A stretch of DNA of 64,000 nucleotides from Lingula anatina (taxonomy: Eukaryota; Animalia; Brachiopoda), in the NCBI GenBank assembly GCA_051362555.1, contig CM120640.1:51128788-51192787 (forward strand), read 5' to 3'. Below the pieces are notes generated by a model that searched no databases, was not told the origin of the DNA, and saw only the letters and a program-made list of their open reading frames with translations. The number at the start of each line of letters is the position of its first letter. The stretch's first letter is position 1. The translations under genes were made by a program, and so were the position numbers. Below are positions 3,301-43,500 of this stretch, in pieces.

Positions 3301-6300
3301 TGGTTGCACGACCAATCGCTTTAATTTGTTTGTCAGCCATTCCTTAGTTAGCAAAATACTTCGATGAATAATACCACACCTTTTTAAAACTATCAACCAA
3401 ATTAGCAACTGAGGTCAAGTACCGTACTAGTGGGTTATATTTTGGATAGTGTTAGCTTGAAATATTGTTCAAAAATTTTTTTTTAAAGATAATATACCAC
3501 AGCTAGCTGGCCTGTTAACGAAAAGAACTTATACATGCACAAAGCATAAATATATTCTTAAACAGACAAACTTGCAAGAAAAGGGGGGGGGTTGAATAAA
3601 GTGTCTAAGTGTCTGTAGGTTTTTATTGTTCTGTAACAAAACATGCGTGCTGTATGCCTAATATAACGGTCACTTATGGACATGGGCATACAATTTGTTA
3701 GCAACCATGTTTGAGTTGTGGGAGGACGACTTTTTGTCCTGACAAGAATTGACTCTCAGTATTCGTGTCTGTCAGGAAAAAATAAGTTACCGTTTCATTA
3801 AAATTTGCTTTGACGGAGTTATTCACACTAAGTCTGCTCTTTTGGTTGAATTCTGTTAAGTGGTTAACGAGCAGAACCTTTCCTAATTTTGAGGAAATCA
3901 AAAATGTTCAGTTTTTAAATTTAGAAATGCATTGGCCCTTGGTATGGTAAGTGATTAAAAGTAAAAACAACCCCATGGGAACCTTAATGCTCTCGTTTTA
4001 TGCTCAAAATCCGCCAACACTATGGGTTTGTCATTCAACTCCCCTAAAATAACACCGACCAAGCCTCAAATTTAACTGCCATGCTCTTTGAATTATCATA
4101 TTTGAAAAAGCAAAACAAAACGAGACAAAAAAAAAGTCAGTTTCGTCGCTCGTTAAGCAACTTATCCACTTTGTCAGACCTTCGAAAAAAATATCTTATA
4201 ATTAACTTAATGATGTCCCGTTTTCTTTTTTCAGCTTCCTCCAGGTATGAACGAGTGCTCAACCCCTTAACTCGTAGCTGAAAACAAAAGTTTGATGTTT
4301 AATCTTTGTTATACTTAGTATCAGAATATCAATATTTAAGTAATAGTCGTGATTCTATTATATGATATTGCTTAAATGTCACAAAATGTGATCAGAATTT
4401 AGTAGAAATGTGGGCAGATGAGCTAATTGATTTTAAAATAATCATAAATATCATTCTACGTGTTTTATGTTTTTAACAAAGGTAAACCGTTCTAAAACCT
4501 GGCTAATCAGTACTCTTTTACAGGCCCAACAGGACCAACTGGACCGACAGGTCCAACAGGGCCTACGGGGGCCACAGGCGCAACTGGTGAAACTGGTGCA
4601 ACTGGACCTGCAGGACCCAAGGGAGATACTGGTCCGAAGGGAGACACAGGGGCAACGGGAGCCACTGGAGGGACGGGTGCTGCAGGCAACACTGGGCCAA
4701 CTGGGCCAACTGGACCCACTGGCAGTAAAGGTGCTTCCGGAGAAAAGGGTGCCATTGGTTCCACTGGTCCAACAGGTTCCACCGGTGCCACAGGTGCTAC
4801 AGGTCCTAGAGGAGAAACTGGAGCAACTGGACCACGTGGAAGTGTTGGTGAAACTGGGCCGCAAGGTCCAAAAGGTGCTGTAGGTGCGACAGGCCCTGCT
4901 GGTATGACTGGTGCAACAGGTTTAAAGGGGGATAAAGGTGGCACCGGAGAAAAAGGAGCTATTGGCCAGACAGGAGCAACTGGCATGAAAGGCACCAGTG
5001 GACAACAAGGCCCAACTGGGCCCGTTGGGCCCACTGGTGTAACAGGGCAGAAAGGTAGCAAAGGGGAAATTGGCATCAAAGGAAACTCTGGAGTGGATGG
5101 TATAAAAGGTGAAAAGGGTGTACAAGGGGACAAGGGCAGCCTTGGTTCAACAGGACCGAAAGGGAATCAAGGGAATACCGGGAATACAGGGCCAGCTGGA
5201 GCAAAAGGACAGAAAGGTGAATTTGGCGCAACAGGGGAAACGGGACCTGTTGGCCCAACTGGACAAAAAGGAAATTCTGGTGCAATTGGCGCAACCGGAC
5301 CAGCCGGCAATAAGGGAGAAAAAGGGCAAATTGGTGCAGTAGGTGCCACTGGCGCCACAGGCCCAACTGGGGCAATTGGCCCAACAGGCCCTCAAGGACA
5401 GAAAGGAAATGTGGGTGCCAAGGGCGAAATAGGAGCCAAGGGATCGATAGGAAATACTGGTGCGACTGGCAGTACAGGCCAGAAAGGCGACAGAGGACAG
5501 ATTGGACCAACAGGTCCAACAGGATTGACAGGCTCCCAAGGTATACAAGGAGAAACGGGTCCTAAGGGAGACAAAGGCATGCAAGGAGAGAAAGGTACAC
5601 AAGGTGAAATTGGTCCGACTGGCCCCACAGGAAATAAGGGAGAGCAAGGAGCTAAGGGAAATGTTGGCAATACTGGACCAGTGGGAAGTAAAGGGGACAA
5701 GGGAGAAATTGGAGCAGTAGGTCCAACTGGCAGCACTGGCGCTACTGGGTCTAAAGGGGACAAAGGAGATCTTGGCCCCAAAGGTGTTCAGGGTCAAACT
5801 GGACAGACAGGTCCTCAAGGCAATACTGGAAATAAAGGAGAAGTAGGGCAAAAAGGAGAACAAGGAATACAAGGAAATACCGGTCCCACTGGGGATGTTG
5901 GGCGTACAGGAGAGAAAGGGGCCATTGGTGATAAAGGGCAGAAAGGTGTACAGGGTTTTACTGGAGCAACTGGATCTACTGGCGCCACAGGTGCTACAGG
6001 TGCCACAGGAGCCACTGGTCCTAAAGGTGATTTAGGATCAAAAGGTCAGAAAGGTGCTATTGGACAAACAGGAGTTCAAGGACCCAAAGGATCACTAGGG
6101 CCTACTGGAGCGACTGGCGTCACCGGGAATAAAGGTGAAAAAGGTGTTCAAGGCCAAATTGGAAATACTGGACCAAAAGGAGCCAAGGGAGAATTAGGCA
6201 ACACAGGGCCTACAGGAAGTGTTGGTCCGACTGGTGCAACTGGACCACAAGGGATTTCTGGAATTAAGGGGAATGTTGGAAACACAGGGCCTACTGGTTC

Positions 6301-9300
6301 TACGGGTGCGATTGGCTCCACTGGAGCCACGGGTCCAAAAGGAAATGTGGGAAATACGGGTCCAAATGGACAAAAAGGAGTGCAGGGAGAGAAGGGCAAT
6401 GAGGGGCCGACTGGAGCCACTGGAACTACAGGGGCCACAGGCCAAAAAGGTGCAATTGGTGGCACTGGCCCAACTGGGGCAACTGGTTTAACTGGTCCTA
6501 TAGGAGTAACAGGCGCGACTGGTGCTGTTGGACAGACGGGCCCAGCTGGAAGCACTGGACCAAAGGGTAATAAAGGAGAGATCGGTGCATCTGGGCCAAC
6601 TGGTCCAAAAGGCAATATAGGGGCAACAGGAAACACTGGAGCTACTGGTAGCACCGGAGCAACTGGACCCGTTGGTTCTACTGGTCCTGTAGGTTCTACT
6701 GGAGCAACAGGGGTTACTGGCGCTAAAGGGAATATAGGAGCCACGGGACCAATTGGTGCCACAGGAGCAACTGGTGCCACTGGTATCCAAGGTAACACAG
6801 GACCAAAGGGAGAAAAAGGTAATATAGGTAATACGGGAGCAACGGGTGACAAGGGTGCTCAGGGTAATACAGGACCCAAGGGACAGAAGGGGGCCTTAGG
6901 TGCTAAAGGGCAAAAAGGTGAATTTGGACAGAAAGGTGTCAAAGGAGAGTTAGGAGAAAAAGGTTCCGTTGGTGCGACAGGAGTAACTGGGTCCAAAGGA
7001 GAAAAAGGAAGCATTGGGAGTAAAGGTGACAAAGGTTCAATTGGTTCAACAGGACCAGTTGGGGCCACTGGCTCCCAGGGAAACACTGGACCCACCGGTG
7101 CAACGGGTTCCACTGGTCCAACTGGTGTTACTGGTGTGACAGGAGCTAAGGGCACTAAAGGTGATCAGGGTGTCCAAGGCAATACTGGCCCTGTCGGATC
7201 AACTGGTGCCACGGGCCCCACGGGCTCCACTGGGGCTACAGGCCAAACTGGACCAAAAGGAATTCAAGGGCAAACAGGATCCAAAGGATCTGTCGGGGAT
7301 AAGGGAAGTAAAGGTGATGTGGGAAATACTGGTGCTACCGGACCTGTGGGTGCAACTGGAGCTATGGGAGGCACTGGACCTGTAGGTGCCACTGGTCAGA
7401 AAGGTGCAGTTGGTGCCACAGGAAATACAGGGCCGAAGGGAAACATTGGAAACACTGGACCGATAGGTGCAACGGGGCCAACAGGGGCAACAGGAAGCAC
7501 TGGACCTGTTGGTGCCACTGGTCCTGTAGGTGCCACGGGTGGTAAAGGAAACAAAGGTGAAAGAGGTGCACAAGGTCTGACAGGAGCAACTGGTACAACT
7601 GGTCCTGTCGGTGCAACTGGTGTCACTGGTCCACAGGGAAATAAAGGCGATAAAGGTGAAATAGGCAACAGTGGCCCCATGGGTCCCAAGGGAAATGTTG
7701 GAGCAACTGGAGCCACAGGTTTAAATGGAAATACAGGGCCAACAGGGGTGACTGGACCGGTGGGTGCCACTGGAAATACAGGCCTCCAAGGTTTAACAGG
7801 ATCAACGGGTGTAACAGGTCTAAAGGGTCAGAAGGGTGAAACAGGGAATGTAGGCAGTACTGGTCCAACTGGCCCCGTGGGATCCACAGGCAAGTGCATT
7901 ACCTAGCTAAGCTGGATATAACGGGTTTAATATCTAGAGACGTATATATTAAATGCTAACCCTTAATGGAATCAATTTTAAATGCTTGTTTTAGGCATAA
8001 CCGTGTCGCTCAATTTATTTTTCGTTTATATGAATCATTGCAATTTATATATATAACATAAGCCTGAGTTTTTGAAAAAAATTTAATGATTAGGCACTAC
8101 TGGGCCACAGGGCAACTCTGGTCCAAAGGGCGAGATAGGTGAAAAGGGGGCTGTTGGCAGTACAGGTCCAGTTGGAAGCACTGGTGCAACAGGGCCAGTA
8201 GGTGCAACTGGAGCCACTGGACAACAAGGACCAAAGGGAGATGTTGGAAACGTAGGTCCCACTGGCCCTAAGGGTGCTGTAGGTGCCACAGGTGAAACTG
8301 GACTGATTGGTAATACAGGCCCGATGGGTCCTAAAGGCAATAACGGCAATACTGGAGCCACTGGACCTGAAGGTGCCACTGGTCCCCAAGGACCAAAAGG
8401 TATCCAGACGTCTTTTAGCCAGTCCTCTTCTTGTTGAACAATAAACTGGATAATTATAACTTTTGAAATGTCAAAAGTACTACATTATTCGTGATAAAAT
8501 ATATTGATACTTATAAGCAAATATTTCTGTAACGTGAAAAACAAAAATATTGTGTAGATTTTTAAAACTTCTATATTCTTTGGCACTGTTACTTATGGTC
8601 AGCATTGTTATTGCCAAATTTTCTCACTTAGGTGAAAAGGGGATTCAAGGAATTTCAGGCATTACCGGTTCTAAAGGAAACCAAGGCGAAAAGGGCGTTA
8701 TCGGACCCACTGGGCAAAAAGGGGAACAAGGAAATACGGGGTCAGTTGGCCCAACTGGTGCAACAGGACCTATTGGACCTAAGGGGAATGTAGGGGCAAC
8801 TGGATCCACTGGACCTGTTGGTGCGACAGGACCTACTGGTACAAAGGGAGAGAAAGGTGTCATTGGGTCCACTGGACCAAAAGGAGCCGTTGGCGATAAA
8901 GGAAGCAAAGGTGATGTTGGACCCATTGGTGCTACTGGCGCAACAGGGCAGAAAGGAGAGACTGGTGAAAAGGGTGTGCAAGGTATATCGGGGATAACAG
9001 GTGCCAAGGGAGAACAGGGCCTACGAGGACCAAAGGGTGAAGTAGGAGAAAAAGGGAGCAAAGGAGAGATAGGAAACACTGGTTCGACAGGTGCAACAGG
9101 TTCTGTTGGAGCAACAGGCCCCGTGGGAAATACAGGTAATGCTTTAATTATTGTGTTGTGAGCACTTTATGAATTTTAGCCATGTTTGAGTATTGCGGTA
9201 TATTTACGCGCGTTATTTATGGGAGGAACTCTCTAACATATCATATACATTAGCTGATGCTGTTTAAAACGGATTCTGATCATTCCATATTAGGGGCAAC

Positions 9301-10402
9301 TGGTCCATCGGGACCAACGGGAGGTACAGGACCACAGGGACCAAAGGGTGAACAAGGAAATAAAGGAGATCAGGGGAATTCGGGACCGATAGGTCCAGTC
9401 GGTTCCACTGGATCTGTTGGTCCGACAGGTGCGACAGGATCCACAGGTCCAGTTGGAAGTACGGGCCCCATTGGACCTACTGGAGGCACAGGGTCTATGG
9501 GACCCACAGGACCTACAGGGGTCAAGGGTGAACAAGGTGTCTCTGGGATAAAAGGCCTGAAAGGAAATGTTGGTAAGTTATATTTCCGTGCAGCAGTTTT
9601 AAGATGGTCGTTTTAAGATGAGTTTAATGATGTACGAAGAATAAACAATAAGCACAAGATAACAGTAAATATTCCTTACATTAGACATAAATATTATTGC
9701 GTTTAAGTGAATGTGTCATCGATTTGACTAGATTCTTCTTTTACGTTAAGGCGCTAAAGGAGAAATCGGAGAAAAGGGTTCCAAAGGAGATCTCGGGTCG
9801 ACGGGCTCTACTGGACCAACAGGTCCTTTTGGTCAAAAGGGTGACCGGGGAGCTACGGGACCAGTTGGAGCTACTGGACCACAAGGCATCGGTGGACCAC
9901 CAGGACAAAAAGGAGTCCCTGGCTCAGCTGGCCCAACTGGAGCAACAGGCCAGAAAGGTGAAGTTGGTGGTGTTGGAGCAACAGGAGCAACTGGTCCACA
10001 GGGTGCAACTGGAAACAAAGGTTCAAAGGGCGAAGTTGGGGTCAAGGGGGAGGTGGGTGCAACAGGAGTATCAGGACCCCAAGGTGCAGTTGGCGCAACT
10101 GGTTCGACTGGACCTATGGGTCCAACAGGAGAGAAAGGGGCGCTCGGCCAGAAGGGCGAGCGGGGATTGGTTGGACCAACTGGACTTAAAGGTAATGCAG
10201 GAGAAAAGGGAGAAAAAGGAGCATTGGGATCTAAAGGAGATACTGGATTAACTGGTGCTACAGGATCAAGTGGCCCCACTGGACCTCAAGGGAACAAAGG
10301 TGAACCAGGTGCTCAAGGGCCAAAAGGTGAACCTGGTTTTAATGGTACAAGAGGACTGAAGGGAGATGTTGGGCCACAAGGGCCACCAGGTAAATTATTT
10401 TT

Positions 10403-10487
<85 letters not shown>

Positions 10488-11118
10488 CATAACATCGTAC
10501 GGTTTTGGTCTTCTGAACGCACAAAACTGTATAATTTGCATATGCTATGATTTCAATTCAAAACAATACACGGAGCTCTTTTAAGTAGATAATATTAAGT
10601 GCACTTAATTCTTACTTTGTTCTTAGCATGCTACCTATTTTTCTTGTTCTTTTACAGGAGTAACCGGTAAGGATGTCCTTCCGATGTTAGGGGAATACAG
10701 ACTTGGTGAAATATTTTAAAAAAGTGATAACGAAAGCTTTTCGTGTACAATTATGCTGCATCAACTATCAATGGATGGTTAATACACAGATAAAGGTCAC
10801 TCTCCCCTTGATTAATTTGTGAAAATTTGGATAATACAATTATGATGCAACAAGCAGTGCTGAAAAATAACAATACTGAGCTGAAACATATAGCAAAAAA
10901 ATGTGTTATCTGTCCATCTCCCTTCAGTAACTTAGTCAGGTGTGTGTCTATTTCAGATGTCGACGAGTGTAACTTTAATAATGGTAACTGTAGTCAGCTG
11001 TGCATCAATACAATTGGGAGTTACTACTGCTGCTGCTACGATGGGTATGAACTAGAAAAAGAAAATCTAGTAGTGCATAGTCGATTGGCAGATGTTTCCC
11101 AATGTCTTGTCACAGGTA

Positions 11119-11176
<58 letters not shown>

Positions 11177-14100
11177 TACATTTTCATTACATTTGGATTT
11201 GCAGGTATAATTTTATTTCTGAAGCATATGAAGAAGCATGCTACAGTTTGTTTCATATTCAATTTTGTCTAAGTTAAGATAATTGATTTCATTTATTTTG
11301 TCCCACTGTCGCTAAGTTGAATTATGTACTGTTTACTTAAACACCCGATTTAGTGACTCGTTGTGTGACAGTTTATATTTATCCGTACACTTATATAAAG
11401 ATAATCCAACGCCAGGTGTGATCTCGCCGATTTATATTATTTTTTACTTAAATCGATAAGAATTAACAAAGTTGTTTTTTCAGGATCAAGGAAGAAAAGA
11501 CAGACAGCGGATTCTACAGGTTAGTTCCAATTTTAAGGCAATTTAGGTTCTTGTTTTTCATATGTTTTAAATTATGTCATATCCAACATCTTTCATTTAC
11601 TGGAGAAGGTTGTCGTCTTAAATAGTCAATGTGACATTGTTCTTTGACACGGCCATTTTGTGCTGTAAGTAAAATTTAACTGATGGTTACATTTCATTAC
11701 ATCCAGACATCATCGACGCAGAGGGCAATGTGTATATGCTTATGTACCTTAACAACATAGTAAATGACAGTCCGGACAATACAGCCACCCAGGAGATGTT
11801 TGTTACCGCCGGCAAACAAGATGTTAATCAAACTGTTGTGGTAACAGTAACCTATTACGATACCAGCGGGGTGAAGGTATCTTTCGACTATACCATAAAC
11901 CCCGGTGCCGTTAGAAGAATTGATCTCTCAGGAAGAGGGCTGTTGACAACTGGAACAGGAATGTCCATGAATGGCATAGAACTAAATAGTTCGAACCCTA
12001 TCATTGTCTACCCTGTTAACAAAAAGTCCTATTCTACTGATGGTTATTTAGCTCTTCCGGTTGATGGTTTGGGTGTGAGATATTACGCTGTGTCCTACCC
12101 TCCATATGATGAAGAATCTGCTTCAGTATCTTTAATTGGAGTTGTCTCTCCGTCAGACAATAATATTGTCCTCATCAAATTACCCACTCTGGGTGGACCA
12201 ATCAGTTTCAATGGTTTCCAGTACGGAAGTGGCGAAACTATTAATATAACCCTGCAAAAATTCCAAACAGCACATATAGAGAGTGGCTATGATCTGACAG
12301 GAACTTTTATTAATAGCCAGGAACCAGTGTCTGTATTTAGTGGAAACGGTCGAACAGCAATTCCTAAAACAAGAGCCTCAAGGGACCATCTTGTAGAACA
12401 AATTCCACCAGTGCAATCATGGGGACGAGATTTTGCAACAGTTCCAATCCCGGATAGAACAGTTGGAGATTACTTCCGATTTGTTGCTAGTCTTGAAAGC
12501 ACAACTATTTCTGTTACTAGCAGCAACGGGACCAAATGGACGTACACTATAGCTAATGCTGGTGGTTCTATACAGGATATCGTCAATTTCAAATCTACTG
12601 ACCGCTACCGCATTGTGTCCAACAAGCCAATTTTGGTAATGCAGTTCGTTACAAGTCAGTTAACGGCATCGGACGGCGAAGTGGCTGACCCAGCTATGGT
12701 CCTGATACCTCCTGTGGAGCAATACAGCCGAGATTATCACTTCTCACTGCCAAGTTCGCAAAGTGCTATTATTTTGGGTAACGAGCCCTTCCGACATTTT
12801 GCGCTCATTGTCATAGAGGACATGTATAAAAATGATCTACTGCTGGACGGTGTTGCTGTGACTTCAGTAAATTGGTTGAGCATTGCAAATAACCCTGCTG
12901 CAACAGCGAAAAACAATCTCGTCGGAGGCTATATAAATGTGACTGGTGAGAACATGCCGCATGTTATCAGCAGCAGTAGAAGTGAACCGTTCACTTTTAT
13001 GATGTTACTGTATGGTGCAGGAGACAGAGAAAGCTACGCTTTTCCAGTGGGGATGAAATTAATCAAAATAAATCCGGTAAGGAAATAGATTTGTCTCATG
13101 AGGGTTCTCTCTCTCAACATAATAATAATAATTTTGATAATAATATGTATTTAAACGACAGTAGTTACATGCTAGGATGATGCGTGCTATAAATACATGC
13201 TTACAATTTGTAACTTGATTCAAGCATGCTTTGACGAATGTAAATAACCCTAATCTCAGTAATTTTTCAATATGAAAACCACAAAAAACTTCTGAACCTA
13301 TCATTTTAGTGTGTTTTTCAAGTATCTTATCTTTTTAAGTAATTTGAAAAAGGCACAATGTATATCGATGTTTGTTCTCTAATTTTTATAATGAATGTTT
13401 ATTAATTTTCCTTTTTAACTTCATATCCTTGTCCCTGCAGCCTTCTCCTCCAGGTAACCGAATTTTGTTTAATTGAATTAGAAACCTGTATGTCAGTAAC
13501 AAATTCAATCTGTATCACCTGTTATCTGTTTCAAGTCAAATGTAGATATACTTTTGTTTTACTAATTAAGTAAATTTAATATGGGGAAGTATGGTATATT
13601 TCAAACCCCAACATCCCATTTCATCAAGGAAAGTAATTAGAAAGGCATTTTCTGCATTTATCTACTGTGACTTATTTTATTCCAACTGGTAAACTTTATT
13701 GTACTGGCAAACTCTTTAATTCCCCAATGTCACGTTCCAGTCTGCCGTACCAATGTGGTTGGAGAGTGCTGTTCGTGTGACGTTGGTGGCGGTGTTATGA
13801 TGCCATACAGTGGAGACTGCTGCATAGGTAATTTCCATGAGCTTTCAAAGTGGAAAGAGGGACAGTCGATTTAACATTCAAATCTACCTGTCTAAATTTT
13901 GCTTTTTTTTTCTCAGTGTAGTATATTTTTAAACATATGTCCGGTGATAAACTGGCGATGGTGTGCTAATAACAATAACCTTTACCAACATAGAGGAAAT
14001 TGTAAACATATCAACAAGACCGCTGATGTTTTCATTGGTGAAAAATAAAATGAGTAACAGTGCTGAACTGTTTTGGTTTCCTTCTGATGGTCCGTAACGT

Positions 14101-16852
14101 GCAACATACTAGTCTGCCATTAACCTTTTTTATTTTTGCTTTATTTAATACATATATGACGTTATATTTTCAGCTGAAAATGTGGAGTGCTACTCGCCGT
14201 GCTGTGGAATAGTGTATTGTTATTGTCAAGTTGGAAGCGTTCGCGTTCCACTTAATAAAACAAACTGCATAGGTAGGTTTCGTTTTATCAAAACTTTTCT
14301 GTTATCACCAAGCAATATTTTAATCATTAATTTGTATTGTATAAGGTTCTAAAGTGTAACTCCCTTCTAATCCTGTAATGAACTCTCTGTCCTTAGATAT
14401 ATGAAAAAGTAAACTTACAAAAATTTGGCCGTGGCTACCATGTATCAATTTTTATTGTTATTCGTAGATACCAACGAGTGTGCAATAGACAACGGAGGTT
14501 GTGCTCACACGTGCACAAATACTCAGGTTGGACTCGGTTTTAACAGACGTGGCTATAACTGTAGCTGCTTTGATGGATATAGATTGTCCGACGACAGCCA
14601 TGAGTGTTTGGGTAAGTTTTTATTAATTTATTTATCTATTATTTTTGTATTTATCGGTGATATTATTTTACATGCACCAATTTGTGATAAGATAACGTGT
14701 GTGAGCGTTTTATGAGATGCCCTGAGAGCTGAAAAGATAAACGTGCATACGTTCACTCAAGTATTTTGAAGCCCATTGAAATTAACTGTGGTTAGCACCA
14801 TTAGGAATCGGCCGTTTTAAAAAGATGCACAATGTATAACTCTGGATAGAATAACTGTTACTGCATTACTTCAATTAATGGATAACACGAGAAAAAGATC
14901 TAGTTATTTAACAAGGATAAACATCACATATGTATGATAGGGCCGAAGCCGGTCAATCTTCAGCAAACGTCAGTGGAAGTATTGATCCATGGGTCATCTT
15001 TTTCCGATATGATCTCTAGTTGTTCTTGGCTCGCGTATAGTTATCAGCAGTAGCACACGAGGAAGATCAAAAGTTACATTCTCGTTTTAGTTTGAGAGGT
15101 GAAAAAAATCTCCAGTTTGATATGGACACAAGTACAAACATAACACAACACGTTTTCGTTTTTTTTTTCAGATATTAACGAGTGTGAGACGGCGATAGGA
15201 AGTAACATTTGTGACAATAACCGTGACTGCGTAAACACAATTGGCAGCTTTTACTGCGTTCGCGATGCTATTCCACCTTCACCAGGTAAGCAAGTCTTTA
15301 CTTTCATTTAGTGTTGCCATGAGGCGCTGTGCTGGATATCCCTTGAGTCACCAACAGAGTATAAGAGATTACGATGTGGCTTGAGGTTGATACTAGAACA
15401 CCCCCCCGGACAATTCCCACAGAGGACACCCCCCCCCCCCACCACCACCAAAAATATACATTTATATGCAAATATAAATTAGTGTAAAGTTCAAAACATT
15501 TCATTCATTTTAAGAATATTTTTACAGTGTGATAATAGAACTTCATCATTAAACAAATTACTTTATAACAAATTCGTTTTTTTATTAAGTACAAGTACAG
15601 AAAGTATTATTAAATATCTCATCAAAGTATAACCACCTATCCTCCAGGTAAAGGTGGGGAAAACAGACGAACGGGTAAATAGATAAGAATATTTTCAGTG
15701 TGGTGGGTAGGTGGGTAGAAGTCAAGCAGTTAAAAGTGATGCAAATAATCAAAGGGATGCCTAGATAAGCGAGAAAATTTGTTTATCGCACCTTTCCCTA
15801 GAGATGAACCTTGATTCGAGGCTTACTTTAATCAAGGTTGGATTAATGAAACAATTAAAAGTAACAGTTATATCATCAAAGTGTTACCTGAATGAATGAG
15901 ATCATCTGTTTACCCCACTTTTACTAGGTGATATACTTTGATCAGATTTTAAATTAAATTTTCTATACTTCTATTTCTAAAATTTTTGTTTACTTGTACT
16001 CCATGAAAATAATTTGTTAAATGAAATTAACATTTTCTATCCTCGAGTTGCATCATCACACTAAGAAATATTCATTAAATGGATGAAAAGATTCGAACTT
16101 TTTGCTTTTTCATTTATATTTTTATACAAATAAATATTCATTGGGGGAGGGGGGATTGTCCTGGGGGGAATTATCCGGGGGGGATTGTCCTGAAACCCTT
16201 GAAGCTGTTTGTTTGTTTGTTCGGCTAAATTTGCCTGATGTCAACGATTTAACCTACGTCTTTTGCTAATAAGGAAAGAAAATTGAATGCCACGCTCATT
16301 CTGCTAAAGAATTATTAAATTGTACTAAAATTTAATATACATTTGAAGAAATGGCATTAGAAACGTAGGCAGAAAGGAAAGGAAATTGTGACTTATAGTC
16401 AGTTTTATAGAAAATATAAAGTCCATCTGACGTTTGTGTACTGCTATCACCACAAATTAATTTAATATTAATTTCAGTGTACTATATTCTATATAGTAAC
16501 AGGGATGTAAATGAGATATAATTCTTTGATTATAACCACCACTTTATTTTAAGCCGCGTCCGGTTTAGAAGGAGGGCCACAGGTAATTCGAATGGCCCAA
16601 CAGACAACCAGTACCCAGTTTAATTCACTTACTATTTGGACAGCAGTCCTTTCCATACTGCTCGTGTTGGTAATAGCATGGAACTTCCGAAAATGGCAAA
16701 CAGACAGGCGAAGAAAGAAAAAGGAAGACGATATCATGGATTCTGCGTCCATAGAGACATTTAGTCCTCGCGATATTGATTTTTCATTACGTGGCAAAAC
16801 AAATGACGCCTACATAAAGAACGAAGAAGAACAGTCTAATGATTGTAATTAA
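369..16852 (+). CDS. Gene A: IgGFcBD-collagen-EGF-IgGFcBD-Cys-rich-EGF-TM membrane collagen, 5'-partial, ~2994 aa visible in 19 exons
   Basis: Exons with AG acceptors, GT/GC donors and compatible phases: 369-483, 716-757, 1721-3114, 4235-4244, 4524-7889, 8094-8399, 8632-9135, 9294-9572, 9751-10389, 10658-10666, 10957-11115, 11484-11519, 11707-13076, 13441-13453, 13741-13827, 14174-14272, 14468-14611, 15172-15285, 16554-16852. Total 8985 nt, divisible by 3, ending at TAA. First exon reads [17 protein letters not shown] (signal-peptide-like); the ATG exon was not found and is probably upstream of the window. Colinear with paralog B. Confidence 0.85.
930..1400. mobile_element. Non-autonomous DNA transposon (MITE, PIF/Harbinger-like ends) in a gene A intron
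   Basis: Perfect 17-bp terminal inverted repeats AGCCTCGGTCACAACCG (930-946) and CGGTTGTGACCGAGGCT (1384-1400), flanked by TTT on both sides. GC-rich interior in an AT-rich intron. Superfamily inferred from terminus style only. Confidence 0.75.
1721..3114 (+). CDS. Gene A exon: first IgGFc-binding protein N-terminal domain
   Basis: ORF 1696-3192 has motifs typical of the FCGBP N-terminal (IgGFc_binding) domain: [71 protein letters not shown]. Acceptor ttttcag at 1720, donor gtaaga at 3115. Confidence 0.88.
3857..4164. mobile_element. Possible degenerate MITE
   Basis: Imperfect inverted ends taagtggttaacgagc (~3857) and gctcgttaagcaactta (~4148-4164); no clear TSD. Confidence 0.3.
4524..10389 (+). 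CDS. Gene A collagen triple-helix region (5 exons, 566 Gly-X-Y triplets)
   Basis: Exons of 3366, 306, 504, 279 and 639 nt are all multiples of 9 and all split a Gly codon in phase 1. Continuous Gly-X-Y in ORFs 4904-7906, 8550-9161, 9257-9616 and 10053-10550. Confidence 0.95.
10406..10483. repeat. (AT)n microsatellite (intronic)
   Basis: Direct observation. Confidence 0.95.
10957..11519 (+). CDS. Gene A: Ca-binding EGF exon (10957-11115) plus furin-site exon (11484-11519)
   Basis: [25 protein letters not shown] matches the cbEGF consensus. The next 36-nt exon encodes [12 protein letters not shown]. Confidence 0.85.
11121..11174. repeat. (AT)n microsatellite (intronic)
   Basis: Direct observation. 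Confidence 0.95.
11707..13076 (+). CDS. Gene A exon: second IgGFc-binding N-terminal domain
   Basis: ORF 11730-13088 has [57 protein letters not shown] and [10 protein letters not shown]. The exon is 1370 nt, identical in size to the homologous exon of gene B. Confidence 0.9.
13741..15285 (+). CDS. Gene A exons: 12-Cys module (13741-13827, 14174-14272), EGF (14468-14611), truncated cbEGF (15172-15285)
   Basis: Translations [29 protein letters not shown] / [33 protein letters not shown] / [16 protein letters not shown]...[19 protein letters not shown] / [29 protein letters not shown]. All are phase-1 exons with counterparts in gene B. Confidence 0.85.
15383..16198. mobile_element. Foldback / long-inverted-repeat element in the last intron of gene A
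   Basis: Left arm ~15383-15670 (cccccccggacaatt...atcaaagtataaccaccta...ggtggggaaaacagacga) is the degenerate reverse complement of right arm ~15900-16198 (tcatctgtttaccccac...taggtgatatactttgatc...aattatccgggggggattgtcc). Confidence 0.7.
16554..16852 (+). CDS. Gene A terminal exon: transmembrane helix and cytoplasmic tail
   Basis: [18 protein letters not shown] followed by basic [13 protein letters not shown] (positive-inside rule); homologous to the terminal exon of gene B. Confidence 0.85.
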
Positions 16853-17943: not shown

Positions 17944-17974
17944 TTCTTGGAAATTTAATTTTGGTAATCTTTAG

Positions 17975-18194
17975 TGCTAGAAGGGGTTTCTGTGTCTTCA
18001 GTAAATTTAGCATAGCAAATAACCCTGCTGCAACCATCTCGTTGGAGGCTGTATAAATGTGACTGGCGATAACATGTCGCATGTTATCAGCAGCAGTAGA
18101 AGTAAACCGTTCACTTTTATGATGTTACTGTATGGTGCAGGAGACAGAGAAAGCTACGCTTTTCCAGTGGGAATGGAGTTTATCAAAATTAATC
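17975..18194 (+). pseudogene. Degenerate duplicate of the 3' end of gene A's second IgGFcBD exon
   Basis: High nucleotide similarity to ~12841-13074 (e.g. gcatgttatcagcagcagtagaagt, ccgttcacttttatgatgttactgtatggtgcaggagacagagaaagctacgcttttccagtggg) with small deletions. The donor site is lost and the copy runs into a cac-rich repeat. Confidence 0.85.

Positions 18195-31216: not shown

Positions 31217-31218
<2 letters not shown>

Positions 31219-31254
<36 letters not shown>
31219..31254. repeat. (GA)n microsatellite
   Basis: Direct observation. Confidence 0.95.
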
Positions 31255-31258
<4 letters not shown>

Positions 31259-32868: not shown

Positions 32869-33449
32869 TTAAGTGCGCTAATGTAGGAGTGGTGTTAATT
32901 TGTCTTTCTTTGAAAAAAAACATATATCATTGGACATATGCTGTGGTTTCATTATCATGCACTTTGTGAGCAACTGAAATCTATATAGTAATCGGTAAAT
33001 CGGAAGATTGTGAAGTTAGCAGAAAATGGATGAAGTTACATGTAAATCATTTAGTGCTGAAAGCGTATTTCAATAAGGTATTTTTTGTTAGAACTTTAAA
33101 ATTTGATGAGGGGTGTAGGGTGTAGAGCCGCATACATAGCAAAACATGACGTAGCAGTTTGGGAGTTAAAAATTGATATCACTTGTCATGTCAAGTTTAT
33201 TGTGTCGACTGATAACCACAGTTAATAAAGTGCTTTAAAACTAGTCTGAAAATATCTCTTCATCTCGAAAGATGGCAAGGAAAATGTAATTTAATTGACA
33301 AATTTATCCTAGGGAAACATTTATGCATATTTTAAGTTCATGTCCGTCTCATATGAAACTTTAAAAGAAATCAGTATCAAAGGTTGATGTTCAATAAAAC
33401 TGAACTGGCAAGCAATTTATAACGGAGAGCTTTTAAGTAAGCAACACTA

Positions 33450-33942
33450 GTTTTTAAATCGTTAAATGGACTTTCACCAAAATACATAAGGTATTACAAA
33501 CAGAGGCACTTCAGGCAGAATTACCCATCACCGATCAAGTACTAAATTTTACCAATCGGCAGACATAAAGACATATCAACTGTTGGTCCAATATGGTCTT
33601 CAGTTGAAATATGGAACTGCCTTAACTCTGGAATTTAAAAAAACTCCGAAGACTTGGATACTTTTTAAAAAATCGTTTTTAAAATATCAAAAGTCAATTT
33701 TTATGTATAAACTTATTAATTTATGTAGCTTTAAGATTTTTACTAACATATTGTCTATTTACTTCATTGTTATTACTATTATTACGTTTAAGTTGATTCA
33801 GTTTTACTTTATTGTTATTTAATTTAATTCAATTTATTATTTATCTTTTATTCATTAACACACTATTTCATTCTAACCCCTCAGAGGGCCATGTGTAAGA
33901 TAAGTGTATACACTTACCATGTTTTACCCTCTTTAAATAAAA

Positions 33943-33989
<47 letters not shown>
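33450..33989 (+). mobile_element. 5'-truncated non-LTR retrotransposon (CR1/L2-like) 3' end
   Basis: Frameshifted remnant resembling a LINE ORF2 C-terminus (VEIWNCL...SEDLDT(F)KK at ~33603-33673), AT-rich 3' UTR, short palindromic stretch (taagtgtatacactta), AATAAA at ~33936 and an (ATT)n tail at 33942-33989. The 5' boundary is approximate. Confidence 0.5.
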
Positions 33990-33990
<1 letters not shown>

Positions 33991-34100
33991 AGCACAATCT
34001 GATTGTTAATTATGATTGTGCCTTAATGATTTCAGTAAGCCAGACATAAAATATCAACATATGTATTTATATTAAATGTTCCTTTTTTACATTTCAGGCC

Positions 34101-34489
34101 ATGAAGTTACTACTACTTGCAGCAGTGCTGTTGGCAGTGGCGGCCCACGCTAGCCAGGCCAGCATCATAAGCGGCAACGAAGATATTCTAATCTATAATG
34201 ATAAACTGTTAAATCAAGACATCGAGGGTAAGTTATTTTTACACATGTATACAGATAGTATTGTTCTACAGAATCAGTTTATTGTATTGGAGCTGATTTT
34301 GAAGCAGGCCAGGCGTTACATAACATCTTTTTGCTGTGCATAAATGACATGTTTAGCTGATATATGTGCATATTTGTTTTGAACAAGTCGATTTTATTAT
34401 TCCAGAAATGAAGGAGCATATCCGAAGGAAGAGACAGACAACAACGAGTAGGAAAATACTGCTTTGAACGTCCTCCAACTGCCCCTACA

Positions 34490-34574
<85 letters not shown>

Positions 34575-37500
34575 AACACATACAGGGAAAAGGGGATATT
34601 TTATCCAGCCTTTCATCAATCATTTGTCATTCCATTTAATCATTTATCTATACAATAATTCATTATAAGTTTGTAGACATATTTTCATTGCCATTTTCAG
34701 TGCTCTTTCTGCATTGTAAATATTTTTTTCAGTCCAAAGACAAAATTCTGGTGGACGCCGCTTCCTGCTAATGTTCATGGAAAATCGAGTGGAATCAAAT
34801 ACGAATCCACCTCAAGACATTTTCCTCACACCCGCTAGAGATGCTACCAGTTTAGTTTCTGTCAATATCACAAACATTTTCGACACTTCATACAACCAAG
34901 TTATAACTTTAGTTCGTAATCAAGTTGTCTCGATAACTGTTGGGGCAAACGTTCGCATGATGAGCGGGAATATTATAGAAAACAAGGCAATTCTAATCGA
35001 GTCTACAGAAGACATCGTTGTTTACGGTGTAAACAGAGAAGCTTTTTCAGTCGACGGTTTCTTAGTCTATCCGATCGAAGCCATTGGATCGTCGTATTAT
35101 ACCGTAAGCTACACCCCAGCCACTACCAGGACAGAAATCGGCATTGCTTCTGTGTACGACAATACCCCTGTTCGCGTCACTCTACCGAACCGGGCTCTGT
35201 CTGTACAATGGGCAGGAACAACTTATGGCGCAAATGGAGTCATTGAATTCACTCTGAACAGTATGCAGACCGCTCTCATTCAGTCAGATACAGACGGCGA
35301 TCTCACAGGAACCAGAGTTGAAGTTACCGTTGCTTTAGTGAACGGCCAAATGCCTAAGCTCGCAGTATTTAGTGGGAATGTCCGCACAGCCGTGAAGCCC
35401 GTGACCAACAACCCTTCACGAGATCATCTGGTGGAGATGATACCGCCCATATCCTCGCTCGGAAGACGTTGGTGCTACGTGCCTATACCAAACAGAACAA
35501 CTGGAGATGTCGTTCGTATAGTTGCAAGCGAGTCTGGTGTTACAGAGCTAACCGTCGTTGATGACACAGGTTCTAGGTTTTATTCCATAGTTGGAGCCGG
35601 AAGTTACACTGAGCTAAATATTTTTAAGTACTCCTATCTGTACACAAATAAGCCCGCCCTTGTAGCCCAGTTTGTAATCAGTCAACTAACAAGTCAATCG
35701 CCTGAAGAAGCCGATCCTTCGATGATCATAGTTCCACCAATTGAGCAGTATGACAATGACTATCATTTTGCAACCCCAACTGGTGTAGCAAGTGCCTACA
35801 CTAATTATTTCTTACTGGTCATCCAGAATGCATCCAGAAGCGGAGTCTTGCTTGATGGTCAACCTGTTGCTAATGTTCAGTGGACCGACATCCCTGGCAC
35901 CATATATGTAGGAGGATATTTCACTGTTTCTGATGGAGCCCACAATATTAGCCACCCTGTTGCTGGTATTGACTTCATGGGTATCCTTTACGGCGCAGGT
36001 GATCGTGAGAGTTATGGTTTACCTATTGGAATGAGACTTGAAGAGATAAATGTTATTGTAAGTACTTATAACCTTTTCAAGTAAACGTGAACATAGGTTT
36101 TATAATTATTTTCACAAGCAATTCTATCTTAAAGAAAGATACATATTCAAAACTATTTAAGTAAAAATTTGAATCAAGCGTTATATATTTTCTGCTTGGA
36201 TGAAAGGATGCCCATTTTTTTTCTAATAGATGTTCCTTGTTTAATCATACAACCGCTTTAATTGTCTGAATTATTAATCATTTGATTTTCGACTTTCCTT
36301 TTTTAGCCTACAAGCCCCCCAGGTAAGTGAACTAAGAACACAACAAACTGTAACATTACTTAAATTGTGTTAATAACCAGATAATATTGTTATATCTAAA
36401 ACTGATTGACTTTTTATAATATTTTAATGTTATTGGTTGTTAAAGAAAGACCAAGGCAATATTTATTTTGAATACTTCCAGGTCCTCCAGGTCCAACAGG
36501 GCCAACTGGACCTGCCGGCCCAAAGGGTTCTCCAGGGGTAACTGGTCCTACTGGTCCAGTTGGGCCCACTGGTGCCATAGGCCCAAAAGGAGATGTTGGT
36601 CCTCAAGGTCCACAAGGCATCACGGGCAACACCGGTCCCCTGGGGCCCACAGGACCAAATGGCCCCATGGGTCCACAGGGTGATCCTGGATTCAATGGAG
36701 CTAAAGGTGACCAAGGTGCACAGGGTCCAACAGGTCTACAGGGTGTAGCTGGCCCTCAAGGGGATACGGGTCCAACAGGACCACAAGGTATCCAAGGGGT
36801 CCAAGGACCAACTGGTGCTGCTGGACAAAAGGGAGAGGTGGGTGCACAGGGACCAACTGGCTCTGAAGGACCACAAGGTGTACAAGGTCAGTCAGGTATC
36901 ACAGGAGCGACAGGACCTCAGGGGTTACCAGGTGCCCCAGGCTCATCAGGACCAACAGGGCCCCAGGGTTCTACTGGGGCTGTTGGAGCCACGGGCGCTA
37001 TTGGTCCAACAGGACCTGCGGGTGCTAAGGGCGAACAAGGAAATATAGGTCAAAAGGGAGCCCTTGGTAGCACAGGTCCAACAGGTCCAGTGGGAGCTAC
37101 AGGGATCCAGGGAAATGTAGGTCCAAGTGGGCCTACTGGCGCACAAGGTGTAATTGGTCCACCTGGTCCAACCGGCAGTAGAGGAGAAACAGGTACCACA
37201 GGTCTTCAAGGCCCAATAGGTCCACAAGGTCCCACAGGATCCAAAGGTGACCAAGGAGTAACAGGCGCTGTTGGAGCAACAGGAGCTACAGGACAAAAGG
37301 GAGAACAAGGAAATGTTGGTCCATCAGGGCCACAGGGTCCAACTGGTCAAGCTGGTGCTGTAGGGCAAACAGGAGTAAAAGGTAATGTTGGCGCAACAGG
37401 TGCAGTGGGACCAAATGGAGCAACTGGACAAAAGGGCAGTCAAGGTAACACTGGACCACAAGGTAATGTTGGCGCAACTGGATCTCAGGGCGCATCAGGG

Positions 37501-40500
37501 CCGACGGGAGCGACTGGCCCTACAGGTGCCCAAGGAGCAGTTGGCCCCACTGGAGCAACTGGTGTAGCAGGTGCAACAGGAACCAAAGGATCAAAAGGAG
37601 AAGTGGGAGCAACTGGCACACAGGGCGTGGCGGGACTAACTGGTCAGAAAGGTGAAATTGGTAATAAAGGTGATAAAGGGAATGTTGGCGCCATTGGCCC
37701 AACTGGTCCACAAGGTGCCATTGGTGTGTCAGGCGTCCAAGGACCAACTGGCAGTAAGGGCGATATAGGAGCTAGTGGACCGACTGGAGCAATAGGCCAA
37801 AAGGGAGCATTGGGTGAGAAAGGGAATGTTGGTCAGAAAGGCGACCAGGGAGCCATTGGTCCCACTGGAGCTACAGGAAACACTGGTCCACAGGGTACAC
37901 AAGGTGTGAGCGGTCCAACTGGTGCAACAGGAAGCAAAGGTGAAGTAGGGGCAAAAGGAGTACAGGGTAATTCTGGGGCAAATGGACCAACTGGAGCCAC
38001 CGGTGCAGTAGGAGCCACAGGGCAAAAAGGACAACAGGGAGTGTCTGGAGCTGTTGGGCCGACGGGTGCTACTGGAGCTACTGGACTTAAAGGAAATGTA
38101 GGAGCTACGGGAGCCCAAGGTTTCACAGGCGCAGTAGGCCCTACTGGTGCAACGGGAGCAAAGGGAGCCATAGGAGACCAGGGCCCAGTGGGAGCGACTG
38201 GTGCCGTTGGGCCTCAGGGCAATACTGGACCTGTTGGAGCTAAGGGACAAAAAGGTACTGTGGGACAGAAAGGAGAGCAGGGCATCCAAGGTGTGTCTGG
38301 TGTCTCAGGTCAACAAGGGGCAGTTGGTGCAACGGGAGCACAAGGAAGCTCTGGCCCGACTGGAGCCACTGGGATAACGGGTGCAAAGGGAAACGTTGGT
38401 GCTGTGGGACCAACTGGGGCTCAAGGGCTTGCTGGTGCAAGCGGACCTACCGGAGCAAAGGGAAATGTGGGTGCAACGGGTGCAGTGGGTGCAACGGGAG
38501 TAGCAGGAGCATCTGGACCGACTGGGGCGACTGGTCAAAAAGGTGATCAAGGCAACGTAGGTCCAACTGGTGCAACTGGAGCCCAAGGAGCCACTGGTCA
38601 GAAAGGTGCTCAGGGTAACCAGGGGGTTTCCGGTGCACAAGGTCCACAAGGTAATGTCTGATGTTATATGAAACATTTGCTGTCAGTGCATCCTTCTTTT
38701 TCCACTTTTTAGTGATATTTTTATTTGTACCAATTTGAAATACAAATGTTAAAAGTACATACAGATATCCATGTTAAGGAAATGGGAATAAAAAGCTGTA
38801 TATAGCACTTTTTTAACATATGTATAAAAAGTTCGTATATTCGTTTCGTTTACAAGCAATAGACAATTTGCACATTTTATTCATTGAATTGGCAGGTGTT
38901 ACTGGTGCGACTGGTCCACAGGGTGCCCAAGGTCTCACGGGAGCAATAGGTCCACAAGGATCAACAGGTCCTCAAGGACCAACAGGTGTAACTGGATTAC
39001 AGGGTGCGTCTGGAGTGACTGGAGCAACTGGGCCAACTGGACAAAAAGGCACAAAAGGAGCCCAAGGTGTATCAGGTGTAGCAGGTCCAACCGGCGCAAC
39101 TGGACAAAAGGGCTCTGTAGGTGCTGTAGGTCCAACAGGGGCACAAGGAATCCAAGGGGTCAGCGGTGCTAATGGACCGACAGGAGCTACAGGTACGGAA
39201 TTCTTCGTATATATGCAGAGCAGTTAAATTGGTTATGAGAGAGAGGGGGAGGAGAATCAGGGTACATAATAAGCAGTGCTTTTTATGAACACGATTTCCG
39301 TGACATTGATTATAGAGAGAACAGGACTTGTAGTTAAACACTTTACTCCATTAATTCAAACATTTTAATTTTACAGGCCCAACAGGTCAGAAGGGTGAAC
39401 AAGGAATACAAGGAAACTCTGGTGCTGTAGGACCAACTGGTAGCACAGGTCCACAGGGTAACGTTGGTCCAACTGGAGCTACCGGTGCAACTGGCGCTCA
39501 GGGTCAATCAGGTTTACAGGGTCCTACTGGTAACACAGGGGGTACTGGGCCAACAGGAGCCATTGGTGCCACAGGGAGCAAAGGGCAAAAAGGAGTGCAA
39601 GGAGCATCTGGAATAGCTGGACCTACGGGTGCAGTTGGCTCTAAAGGACAGAAGGGAGATGTCGGGGCTGTTGGAGCTAAAGGAGCACAGGGTATACAAG
39701 GTGTTAGTGGCAATATTGGTCCCACAGGGGCAACTGGTCCTCAAGGACAGAAAGGTGAAGTTGGAAACCAGGGAGCATCGGGTGCAGTTGGAGCAAAAGG
39801 TCAGAAAGGAGCGTTGGGAGCGACCGGAGCTGTTGGTGCCACTGGAGCTACTGGTCCACAGGGCCAGACAGGAGATAAAGGAGCCCAGGGAGTTTCTGGA
39901 GTTCGAGGTTTAACTGGTCCTACCGGCGCCACTGGTGCAACTGGTGTCCAAGGCCAATCCGGAGCAGCTGGGCCCACAGGAAGCACAGGAGCTACGGGAC
40001 CAGTTGGAGCTACTGGCCCCAAAGGTAACTTGACTCAAATATTTTTCAGTGTCTCTAAACTTTGATTCTGGATACTGCTTAAAATATTTTAATGTGTGAG
40101 GAAACCTACGGATACAAAAAAATAGGGTGTAACTTAACTGGAGGTGCAACTTAACTTCTTTTAGGTGAAATCAACTGCATTGTGTTCATTAATTAATAAC
40201 AGTTAGCCTTTAACACACACACATACACACACATTTTTGTTTAATTCTATTAAAACGTGTTTGTTTGTTTAGGTGAAGTTGGGCAGAAAGGATCACAAGG
40301 AATACAGGGTATCAGTGGAGCAAATGGGCCAACTGGAGCTACTGGGCCTCAAGGTCAAAAAGGTCAGAAAGGTATACAAGGGGTATCTGGTATTGCAGGA
40401 CCAACAGGAGCTACTGGTCCTCAAGGCCAGAAGGGGGAGCAGGGTATACAGGGTGTTTCAGGAGCAAATGGACCCACTGGAGCCACAGGTCCGCAAGGCC

Positions 40501-43500
40501 AGAAAGGTCAACAAGGTATACAGGGAGTATCTGGATTGGCAGGCCCAACAGGTGCAACGGGACCTCAAGGTCAGAAAGGCCAAAAGGGTATACAGGGTGT
40601 ATCTGGAATAGCAGGACCAACCGGAGCAACTGGTCCTCAAGGTCAGAAGGGTCAGCAAGGTGCTCAAGGTACTTCTGGGGCAGTTGGAGCGAAAGGTCAG
40701 AAGGGACAACAGGGTGCATTTGGACCCCAAGGCCAGACAGGAGCAACAGGCCCTGCGGGACTGCAAGGCGTGTCCGGTGCTGCAGGACCAACTGGATCAA
40801 CAGGTCCAACTGGGAGCCAGGGCCCTGTTGGGGCAACTGGCCCACAAGGTAAATGCCCTTTCTTTGAATTATATATTACTGTTAAAAGAAATGATTGAAT
40901 GATCCATAAAATAATGATTGATATTATTCTTACTGCTGTAATATGTTATGAAATTTGAAAAAGATATTAAGAAAATAAAACGCTGGTTTCTGTCTTAAGG
41001 TGTTCAAGGTCAGAAGGGCCAGAAAGGAGTGCAAGGTGTATCTGGAATAGCTGGACCTACCGGAGCTCAGGGCCCACAAGGTTTTACTGGCCAGAAGGGT
41101 ACAAAGGGTGACACTGGTGCAACTGGTGCTCAGGGTACATCCGGTAGTATTGGTCCCACAGGAGCAACAGGCCCAGCTGGTGCAAGAGGTGAAACAGGAG
41201 TTAAAGGCGAAAAAGGTATGTTTGCATCCTTGGATGCTATTTATGTGTATTTATATAAAATTATGCGTTTCCTATTACTGAAACTGCTTTGTTCAAAGGA
41301 TAAATTTCTTGGACCAACATAAGCAGTTTGTCAAACCTTTCTGAACTGTCTTGAAGGAACATGATTTTCTTTTGAAATGTAGACAAACTTTCTTTCCATT
41401 TTTTTTCATGATGCCTTTTTGTACATTTTATACGACTCGAATATTTATTTGAATTTCACTATGTTATCTTTTATTCTATTCCAGGATCGGTTGGTGCAAG
41501 TGGGCCCCAGGGTGTGACAGGAGCAACCGGAATTACTGGAACGAAGGGCCAAAAGGGTCAGCAAGGTGTGTCAGGCCAGATCGGTCTTCAGGGTTCAAAG
41601 GGTACTAAGGGAGATCAAGGAATCCAGGGTGTATCAGGTGCAAGAGGTGCAAATGGACTTAACGGTGAAAAGGGTCAAAAAGGAACAGTTGGAGCGACAG
41701 GGGCAACGGGAGTAAATGGTGCCCAGGGACCAAAAGGAAATCAAGGAGACAGTGGCGCAATTGGACCACAAGGTAAGTTTCGTATTTTATTGCCATTATA
41801 TAAAACTTAGGATGCACATACTCAATTTTATTGCTTTGTTAACTCGTTTAATGATGGCTAGTCATCTCATATTTATTTAAGCTAGTCATCTCAAGTTCAT
41901 TAAAGCTACTCTGGTCACTTAAAAAGTAAATCGCAAAAACATTGCACAGTGCGCTTACTCCGATTTCAAAGAATTACATAATATAAATTGTCCCCTTGTA
42001 AACGTTCGCATTTTGCCAATTTCAATTTTTTAAACCAAAATTTAACGTTATCTTGAAGGACCTACTGGTGCGAAAGGAGAAGTTGGAGCCCAGGGAATTC
42101 AAGGCATTAAAGGTGAAAAGGGTATTCAGGGTAACTCTGGAGCCGTAGGACAAAAGGGGTCAGTGGGTGCAGTTGGACCAACAGGTGCCAAGGGAGAAGT
42201 GGGTGCAGTAGGAGCCACAGGCCAAAAAGGTTCAATTGGTGCATCTGGTCCAACAGGTGTCCAAGGTCTAAATGGTCCTACAGGAGCCACTGGTCCAACG
42301 GGTGCTCAGGGAGCCTCTGGAGCAATAGGTCAAAAAGGTAACAATGACATTCCTCTTGGCTCTGAGATATCTACTTGTATGCAATGTAGTCTCATGTGAA
42401 AAGCTGTCTGCTGTAGGTAGTTTCTTAATGATTTATATATCCTTCAAATCTTTTAACTAAAGCCTAACTAACCTTGTCTTTATTGCACAGGTGAACAAGG
42501 AATACAAGGTCCTGTGGGTGCTAAAGGAAATCAAGGAGCCTCTGGAGCAGTTGGCCAGAAGGGAGAACGTGGTTTACAAGGTTTACCTGGTAATACAGGA
42601 CAAGTTGGTCCCACAGGACAGCAAGGTCCATCTGGTGCTGCTGGTGCCAATGGTTTACAGGGTCCTAAGGGATCAGTAGGATCAACAGGTCCAACAGGAC
42701 AGGTAGGTGCCAAAGGTGCACAGGGCCAAAAAGGTGAGGTCGGTTCATCCGGCGCCGTAGGACAGAAGGGAGAACAGGGTGTTGTAGGACCTACCGGCGC
42801 TCAGGGTCTCCAGGGAATAAAAGGACAAAAGGGTGTGAATGGTGTTCTTGGTCCACAAGGCCCAACAGGTCAGAAAGGTCAGCAGGGTGCGTCTGGAATA
42901 GCAGGACCTACTGGTCTCACAGGAGGTATTGGTCCTGTTGGCCCAACCGGTAGCACTGGCCCCCAAGGATTACAGGGGGTAGTTGGAACAAAAGGACAAA
43001 AAGGCGATCAGGGTGTTCAAGGACAACAAGGACCAATGGGTGCGCAAGGTCCCCCCGGTGTCACAGGTTTACAGGGAACTCCAGGTGTGCAGGGTATTAA
43101 GGGAGAGCGAGGAGCCCCTGGAATGAATGGTAAGTTGACTGTTAGTTTTAACAATCTTTACCAAATTGATTACACAATCATATATATTAAGCTATCTGGT
43201 ATGGAGGCCCATAGTATAAATACACGTATGAGTTCGTTTTTAGGATGGATTAAGACATTTTCTTTCTTTCTTTTTTTTTTTTTTTTTTTTTGACGTTTTG
43301 TTGCAAAACATCAATGTAAGGTTTTTGAAATGTTCGTGGTGCTCAATATGGTCTTGATATTGTACATATGTGACTACTGAAGTTCTTCTTCTCTTTTTAA
43401 GATCACCAATTCAAGTGAACAATGTATGATATTTAGCATTTCTTCATATCACCATAACACAAACGGCTCATTATTGATAGCATGTAACACTTTGTGCATA

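Follow-up and report, generated by a model that had tools for sequence, protein, structure and literature searches.

How do two collagen chains keep the same length once their sequences no longer match? The question is raised by two tandem collagen genes, A and B, on the + strand of a 64,000-nucleotide stretch of animal DNA (contig CM120640.1, positions 51,128,788 to 51,192,787), referred to here as the window. A six-frame scan of the window found 13 Gly-X-Y runs grouped in two clusters, and Pfam placed an IgGFc-binding domain (PF17517) on both sides of each cluster, with EGF domains 3' of each. An earlier reading made from the sequence alone had concluded that helix length is under selection, as expected if A and B chains assemble in register as a heterotrimer or span a fixed distance. 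We lean toward a different cause: the two genes, tandem paralogues of old origin, probably took their length from one ancestor, and each chain forms its own homotrimer, held at that length by selection against insertions and deletions (indels).

Coordinate-based exon models give an open frame of 2,994 amino acids (aa) in 19 exons for gene A and of 3,009 aa in 20 exons for gene B (Table 1). For A, RNA joints in run X18 cover 369-10390, and the exons after 10957 come from the DNA and from similarity to B. The predicted N-terminal order in both is a signal peptide, a short propeptide ending in a furin-type motif, an IgGFc-binding domain and then the helix, which is followed by an EGF domain, an RKKR motif, a second IgGFc-binding domain, a Cys-rich segment, two EGFs, a hydrophobic helix and a short tail. 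With the signal peptide at the N terminus and the hydrophobic helix at the C terminus, the predicted orientation is type I; R-x-K/R-R motifs stand on both sides of the rod, and the piece between the furin-type sites comprises 2,234 aa in A and 2,216 aa in B. On these features A and B are predicted to be type I membrane procollagens with IgGFc-binding domains and with furin-type sites flanking the helix, an architecture that had escaped the sequence-only reading.

The borders of the helix exons were set by a generic AG..GT rule, and all of these exons are phase 1. The spliced helix of A is one unbroken run of 374+34+56+31+71 = 566 triplets, 567 with a 9-nucleotide (nt) micro-exon, and that of B is likewise unbroken, with 241+33+72+64+24+32+31+71 = 568. 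The counts given by the sequence-only reading were therefore exact, and the Gly-X-Y interruptions that it allowed might have been missed by eye do not occur. All four internal helix introns of A were seen in X18, the GC-AG intron 7890-8093 after A's 3,366-nt exon is RNA-supported, and 88 X18 reads carry the micro-exon at a loose end at 10390. Among the joints listed, at least five of the seven internal helix introns of B were found in the same run, the junctions after 38650 and 42337 resting on DNA. A search of the introns for hidden helix exons gave none inside the helix and one 9-nt candidate outside it, and B has no micro-exon between helix and EGF. At the collagen rise of 0.286-0.29 nm per residue the predicted rod is 486-494 nm long, which agrees with the ~490 nm proposed before.

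The length match was probably inherited rather than convergent, as follows from shared introns and equal segments. Three of the four helix introns of A, after triplets 408, 464 and 495, coincide at one offset with those of B after 410, 466 and 497, a result that only 12 of 200,000 random layouts reached. The two genes therefore agree exactly in the length of segments of 71, 31 and 56 triplets, the 56-triplet exon of A being equivalent to the 24+32 exons of B; the N-terminal parts have 408 (A) and 410 (B) triplets, and the A micro-exon adds one. The exon layout, which had been described as different, thus differs only in part. Over the same helices, A and B agree at 17.5% of X/Y positions at offset 0 and at 18.6% at offset +1, where the background over 401 offsets is 16.8 +/- 1.2%; by this comparison the two helices have no alignable similarity and their X and Y positions are saturated. 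A recent duplication or gene conversion was ruled out, there being no in-register identity in any 40-triplet window and only 42-48% identity in the domains.

The globular parts that flank the helices are 42% and 48% identical between A and B and contain 16 and 18 gap events (34 in ~1,160 residues), a rate that predicts ~50 indels in the helix. In a random-walk indel model run at this rate the probability of the total-length match is 0.03-0.17, and that of the segment pattern is at most 0.003. The total match alone is therefore not extreme, but the segment-by-segment match is, and the pattern of segments fits some five indels at most, not the ~50 predicted. Because exact segment lengths were kept while the sequence became unalignable and the globular parts accumulated gaps, indels in the helix were suppressed, and the earlier claim of a constraint on length stands. 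No coding indels were listed in X18 over the A and B stretches, against 255 and 324 substitution sites, which is weak evidence, since a neutral indel would seldom span a multiple of 9 nt.

The difference in helix composition, on which the sequence-only reading also drew, is real: Thr occupies 41% of Y positions in A and 29% in B, and Pro 0.9% and 1.8%. A further argument had been that B kept its length while carrying an internal block of five 72-nt repeats. The block exists, and its copies agree in 19-23 of 24 residues, yet only 60 of 140 four-fold sites agree, where codon usage alone gives 30-39%. Judged by these near-saturated silent sites the block is old. A recent expansion is ruled out by the four-fold agreement, and the age of the block leaves no evidence of a recent, compensated expansion, which weakens the argument drawn from it; an old expansion may have been compensated.

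Of the alternatives, a heterotrimer of A and B (A2B, AB2, or ABC including a third chain from another locus) survives best, and we hold it to be possible but doubtful. The C-terminal domains would choose the chains, and the shared helix would demand equal length. The difference of a single triplet fits this proposal, as do the distances from helix end to furin-type site (59 and 61 aa) and to the membrane segment, 702 aa in A (10667-16640) and 701 aa in B (43130-47140) despite 18 gap events, a match that may be due to chance. Net charge (+54 and +52) and Pro count (136 and 138) are also similar in A and B, and in Lingula three shell EGF-collagens of 795, 774 and 781 aa lie in tandem (supplement of PMC4595640). 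In favor of ABC, RNA loose ends at 5989, 6243, 6763 and 10009 (X18, X12) lead into Thr-rich Gly-X-Y transcripts not encoded in the window, and a third member of the family may lie elsewhere in the genome.

The charge pairs give such a heterotrimer no support. With salt bridges counted by the rule of PMC11923368, 147 are predicted for AAA, 70 for BBB and 28-85 for mixed trimers, in which the A-B pairs number 19-28 in register compared with 20.9 +/- 4 out of register. Pairs of Lys with Asp/Glu between A and B stayed at the background level in each of six arrangements and each of seven registers, and in a single direction the z value near register did not exceed 1.6, which also bears on an ABC trimer. 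In a control pair of Lingula paralogues, short and alignable, the equivalent count peaks sharply in register (15-17 against 4-12); that of A and B does not. Each chain is instead rich in motifs that fit itself, with 57 Lys-Gly-Glu/Asp motifs in A against 19.1 +/- 3.4 after triplet shuffling (threefold) and 31 in B against 6.2 +/- 2.2 (fivefold). These do not face one another, since 2-7 coincide at offsets -2 to +3, where 3.1 are expected. As both chains have kept their self-pairs, and an AAB or ABB trimer would use those of one chain only, the pattern favors homotrimers. Pro-containing triplets did coincide at offset +1 (47 against 31.7, the best of 601 offsets, p 4e-4), but after trimming 25 triplets from each end the signal fell to chance (23 of 138 shifts as high) and is explained by shared Pro-rich ends. 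Scans of other features and of mutual information between the two helices gave nothing consistent.

The sequence-only reading had held that non-overlapping expression would speak against its proposal. Reads in runs X12/X15/X18/X14 were 9/22/3,457/1 for A, with those in X12 and X15 partial or intronic, and 9/0/1,701/10 for B. Both genes are thus high in the same one of four bulk RNA runs, a result that is compatible with overlap, although a single bulk run resolves neither cells nor stoichiometry.

Several observations weigh against our reading of two homotrimers. The genes are neighbors, both are high in the same run, and in X18 the A:B depth ratio of 1.9 over the N-terminal domain exon fits 2:1; over the helix exons it is 4.0. 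A heterotrimer may do without charge pairs, and the self-pairs are possibly left from a homotrimeric ancestor. The N-terminal 408 and 410 triplets have no shared intron, and compensating indels may have occurred there. Scans for stagger and Fourier scans found no fibre stagger or shared D-like period.

A bolder proposal, which we regard as unlikely, is that A and B represent a second, independent fibre-forming procollagen. The IgGFc-binding domain and membrane anchor would replace the COLFI propeptide, furin would free a half-micrometre rod carrying glycosylated Thr, A and B would wind together without sequence matching, and the family would include the giant Thr-rich cuticle collagens of annelids, which are known from electron microscopy and protein chemistry. 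Among the named matches listed, where only top candidates were scored, none was an annelid protein combining collagen with IgGFc-binding domains.

It is quite unlikely that the rods are spacers over a fixed distance of ~0.5 micrometres, such as that between the cell surface and an outer layer of the cuticle, with each paralogue held to length independently. The predicted membrane anchor at one end, the globular head at the other and the unbroken helix fit such a spacer. However, A, B and their Lingula homologue all have a furin-type site that separates rod from anchor, so that the rod is probably released; moreover, a spacer could tolerate a length change of a few per cent and has no need of exact segment lengths. 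The homologue, Lingula anatina XP_013406006.1 (LOC106170605, an uncharacterized predicted gene model), also argues against a ruler fixed across the family. It resembles A and B in its signal peptide, IgGFc-binding domain, Thr-rich helix (42% Thr at Y), EGF, furin-type site, second IgGFc-binding domain, Cys-rich segment, EGFs and C-terminal membrane helix, and in having no COLFI domain, and it differs in a third IgGFc-binding domain and in a helix of 56 + 253 (about 310) triplets with one break. Hence 568 triplets is no universal ruler.

That length is under no selection as such, with frame-keeping indels rare and the closeness due to inheritance and luck, is very improbable, because although ~5 small events would give the segment pattern a probability of 0.07-0.25 and only multiples of 9 nt are tolerated, the X and Y positions are saturated, the helix DNA is repeat-rich with many short tandem arrays, B once gained or homogenized a 40-triplet block, and the family spans about 50 to 568 triplets.

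Starting from the gene structure, domain order, shared introns, loss of alignable sequence and self-fitting charge pairs, we infer how two homotrimers of fixed length might arise. The membrane-anchored C-terminal part would gather three chains, and the helix would zip from its EGF end. Furin-type cuts on both sides would then free a ~490-nm rod that has an IgGFc-binding domain as its head and an EGF as its foot. If one allele gained or lost a triplet, its chain would fall out of register with those of the other allele over the remainder of the rod, and the change would act dominantly, as is known from human collagen I disease; rods packed together in a single extracellular fibre or layer would also have to be equally long. 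Because X and Y tolerate point changes, the sequence would drift while the length stays. Chain register, and perhaps packing in a shared fibre, would lock the length, as it does among the paralogues of fibrillar collagens. The Thr residues at Y are probably glycosylated and would replace hydroxyproline, as glycosylated Thr stabilizes the cuticle collagen of Riftia (Mann et al. 1996, cited in PMC11766948).

Equal helix length is usual among collagen paralogues, whether homo- or heterotrimeric, as in two 53-triplet paralogues of Lingula, and is in itself no proof of a heterotrimer. What stands out here is that 1,700 residues whose sequence has turned unalignable are still frozen in length segment by segment; such segments separate selection on length from selection on sequence in a manner testable in related genomes. 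A type I membrane procollagen without COLFI, as predicted here, would also give the IgGFc-binding domain a testable job, and A and B are a candidate gene family for very long Thr-stabilized collagens.

Table 1. Features of the two collagen genes, in positions of the window
Feature	Position	Strand	Remarks
Gene A, coding exons in window	369..16852	+	19 exons, 2,994 aa; first coding exon upstream of window
A, 42-nt exon with R-x-R-R furin-type site closing N-propeptide	716..757	+	cleavage inferred
A, N-terminal IgGFc-binding domain (PF17517), single exon	1721..3114	+	E 5e-56
A, helix exons of 374, 34, 56, 31, 71 triplets	4524-7889, 8094-8399, 8632-9135, 9294-9572, 9751-10389	+	
A, 9-nt micro-exon, 567th triplet	10658..10666	+	88 RNA reads
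A, calcium-binding EGF exon and 36-nt exon with RKKR furin-type site	10957..11519	+	59 aa past helix
A, C-terminal IgGFc-binding domain, 1,370-nt exon	11707..13076	+	E 1e-59
A, Cys-rich segment, two EGFs, predicted membrane helix, short tail	13441..16852	+	last exon 16554-16852; hydropathy 2.3 over 19 residues
Gene B, complete coding span	34101..47442	+	20 exons, 3,009 aa; predicted signal peptide 34101-34227
B, 42-nt exon with RRKR furin-type site	34406..34447	+	size equals A's; RNA loose end, 25 reads
B, N-terminal IgGFc-binding domain	34733..36057	+	E 4e-47
B, helix exons of 241, 33, 72, 64 triplets	36482-38650, 38896-39192, 39377-40024, 40273-40848	+	
B, helix exons of 24, 32, 31, 71 triplets	41000-41215, 41485-41772, 42059-42337, 42491-43129	+	
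B, five 72-nt (8-triplet) repeats	40299..40658	+	
B, calcium-binding EGF and RKKR furin-type site	43514..43699	+	61 aa past helix
B, C-terminal IgGFc-binding domain, 1,370-nt exon	43918..45287	+	E 1e-59; all-beta model, pLDDT 94.5
B, Cys-rich segment, two EGFs, predicted membrane helix, tail	45567..47442	+	last exon 47054-47442; hydropathy 2.8 over 19 residues

In both genes the domains are connected by micro-exons of 9-16 nt (4235-4244, 10658-10666, 13441-13453, 36307-36322 and 45567-45582), with RNA support for those at 4235, 10658, 36307 and 45567. Just past the stop codon of A, 17972-18194 repeats the 3' end of the gene's C-terminal IgGFc-binding exon at 86% identity, and an intron of A holds an RNA-covered stretch (930-1260), probably a dispersed repeat, which is bounded by loose ends on either side. 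On the - strand, 52010-52441 and 55121-55567 are open frames that resemble exons of another gene, with no Pfam match above the cut-off.

The named relatives that combine collagen with IgGFc-binding domains came from a brachiopod and a bryozoan, which points to a lophotrochozoan as the probable source of the window. Nine of the 226 proteins collected have a run of at least four triplets, and six of them are true collagens (five Lingula records and one from Watersipora). Beyond XP_013406006.1, members of the family have 53, 53 and 32 + 19 triplets, and the two 53-triplet Lingula paralogues are 51% identical at X/Y in register. In Lingula XP_023933091.1 a related IgGFc-binding domain precedes a Thr-rich Gly-X-Y tract with breaks, after which comes a C-terminal domain of another kind. 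In a quick tree of 42 IgGFc-binding domain rows, the four domains of the window group with the three of XP_013406006.1 (SH-aLRT 99), and the C-terminal domains of A and B group with Logan ORF P0101, apart from Lingula (95). On this branching the A/B duplication probably followed the split from the lineage of the Lingula protein, but is old. None of 57 metagenome loci contained a Gly-X-Y run, the ESM Atlas returned generic families only, and a PDB sequence search gave a single match (E 0.49). Single-sequence folding gave no usable model (pLDDT 32), and the model of B's C-terminal IgGFc-binding domain found only weak beta-sandwich matches in the PDB (best Z 7.6).

The architecture of A and B was not found described in the literature searched, whose coverage did not extend to subscription journals. 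In the survey of the IgGFc-binding domain the word collagen is absent from the main text available, and the role of the domain is left open (PMC4948705); the term "IgGFc" is absent from PMC13425148. Among known collagens, A and B belong with the EGF collagens of Lingula, which Luo et al. (2015) reported as tandem-duplicated (PMC4595640) and with which they share a helix joined to a calcium-binding EGF and the lack of COLFI. The Lingula shell collagens listed there have 774-1,548 aa and 10-21% Ala, and the EGF collagens are described with collagen and EGF only, an IgGFc-binding domain or membrane anchor being unmentioned in the available text.

Compared with the fibrillar procollagens (I, II, III, V, XI), A and B similarly have one long unbroken helix between propeptides, in their case putatively removable, nearly equal lengths among paralogues and, probably, assembly from the C end. 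The helices of fibrillar paralogues, near-constant at about 338 triplets (PMC2852846), are considerably shorter than the 567 and 568 found here. Fibrillar exons of 54 and 45 nt start with an intact Gly codon (PMC2852846), whereas those of A and B are phase 1 and measure 216-3,366 nt, with one of 9 nt. In place of COLFI, the exons past the helix match EGF and PF17517 and the models continue to a membrane helix. The predicted anchor and the Thr, rather than Pro, at Y are further differences. The MACITs (XIII, XVII, XXIII, XXV) and colmedins likewise have a membrane-anchored precursor and furin-type release of the ectodomain, as predicted for A and B; however, MACITs are type II with interrupted helices, whereas A and B are predicted to be type I with one unbroken helix (PMC7848082).

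The rod of A and B is long but no record among collagens. Bacterial chains reach up to 6,000 residues (PMC11923368), and against the rod of about 0.49 micrometres predicted here, measurements on the cuticle molecules of annelids gave lengths of up to 2.4 micrometres, although that figure has been questioned (PMC2443231). The cuticle collagens of annelids and vestimentiferans (Gaill et al. 1991/1995) nevertheless share with A and B a very long helix, a globular domain and, probably, stability linked to Thr in place of hydroxyproline (PMC11766948, PMC2443231), and the trait of these collagens in which Thr dominates the Y position, with little Pro there, is found in both A and B.

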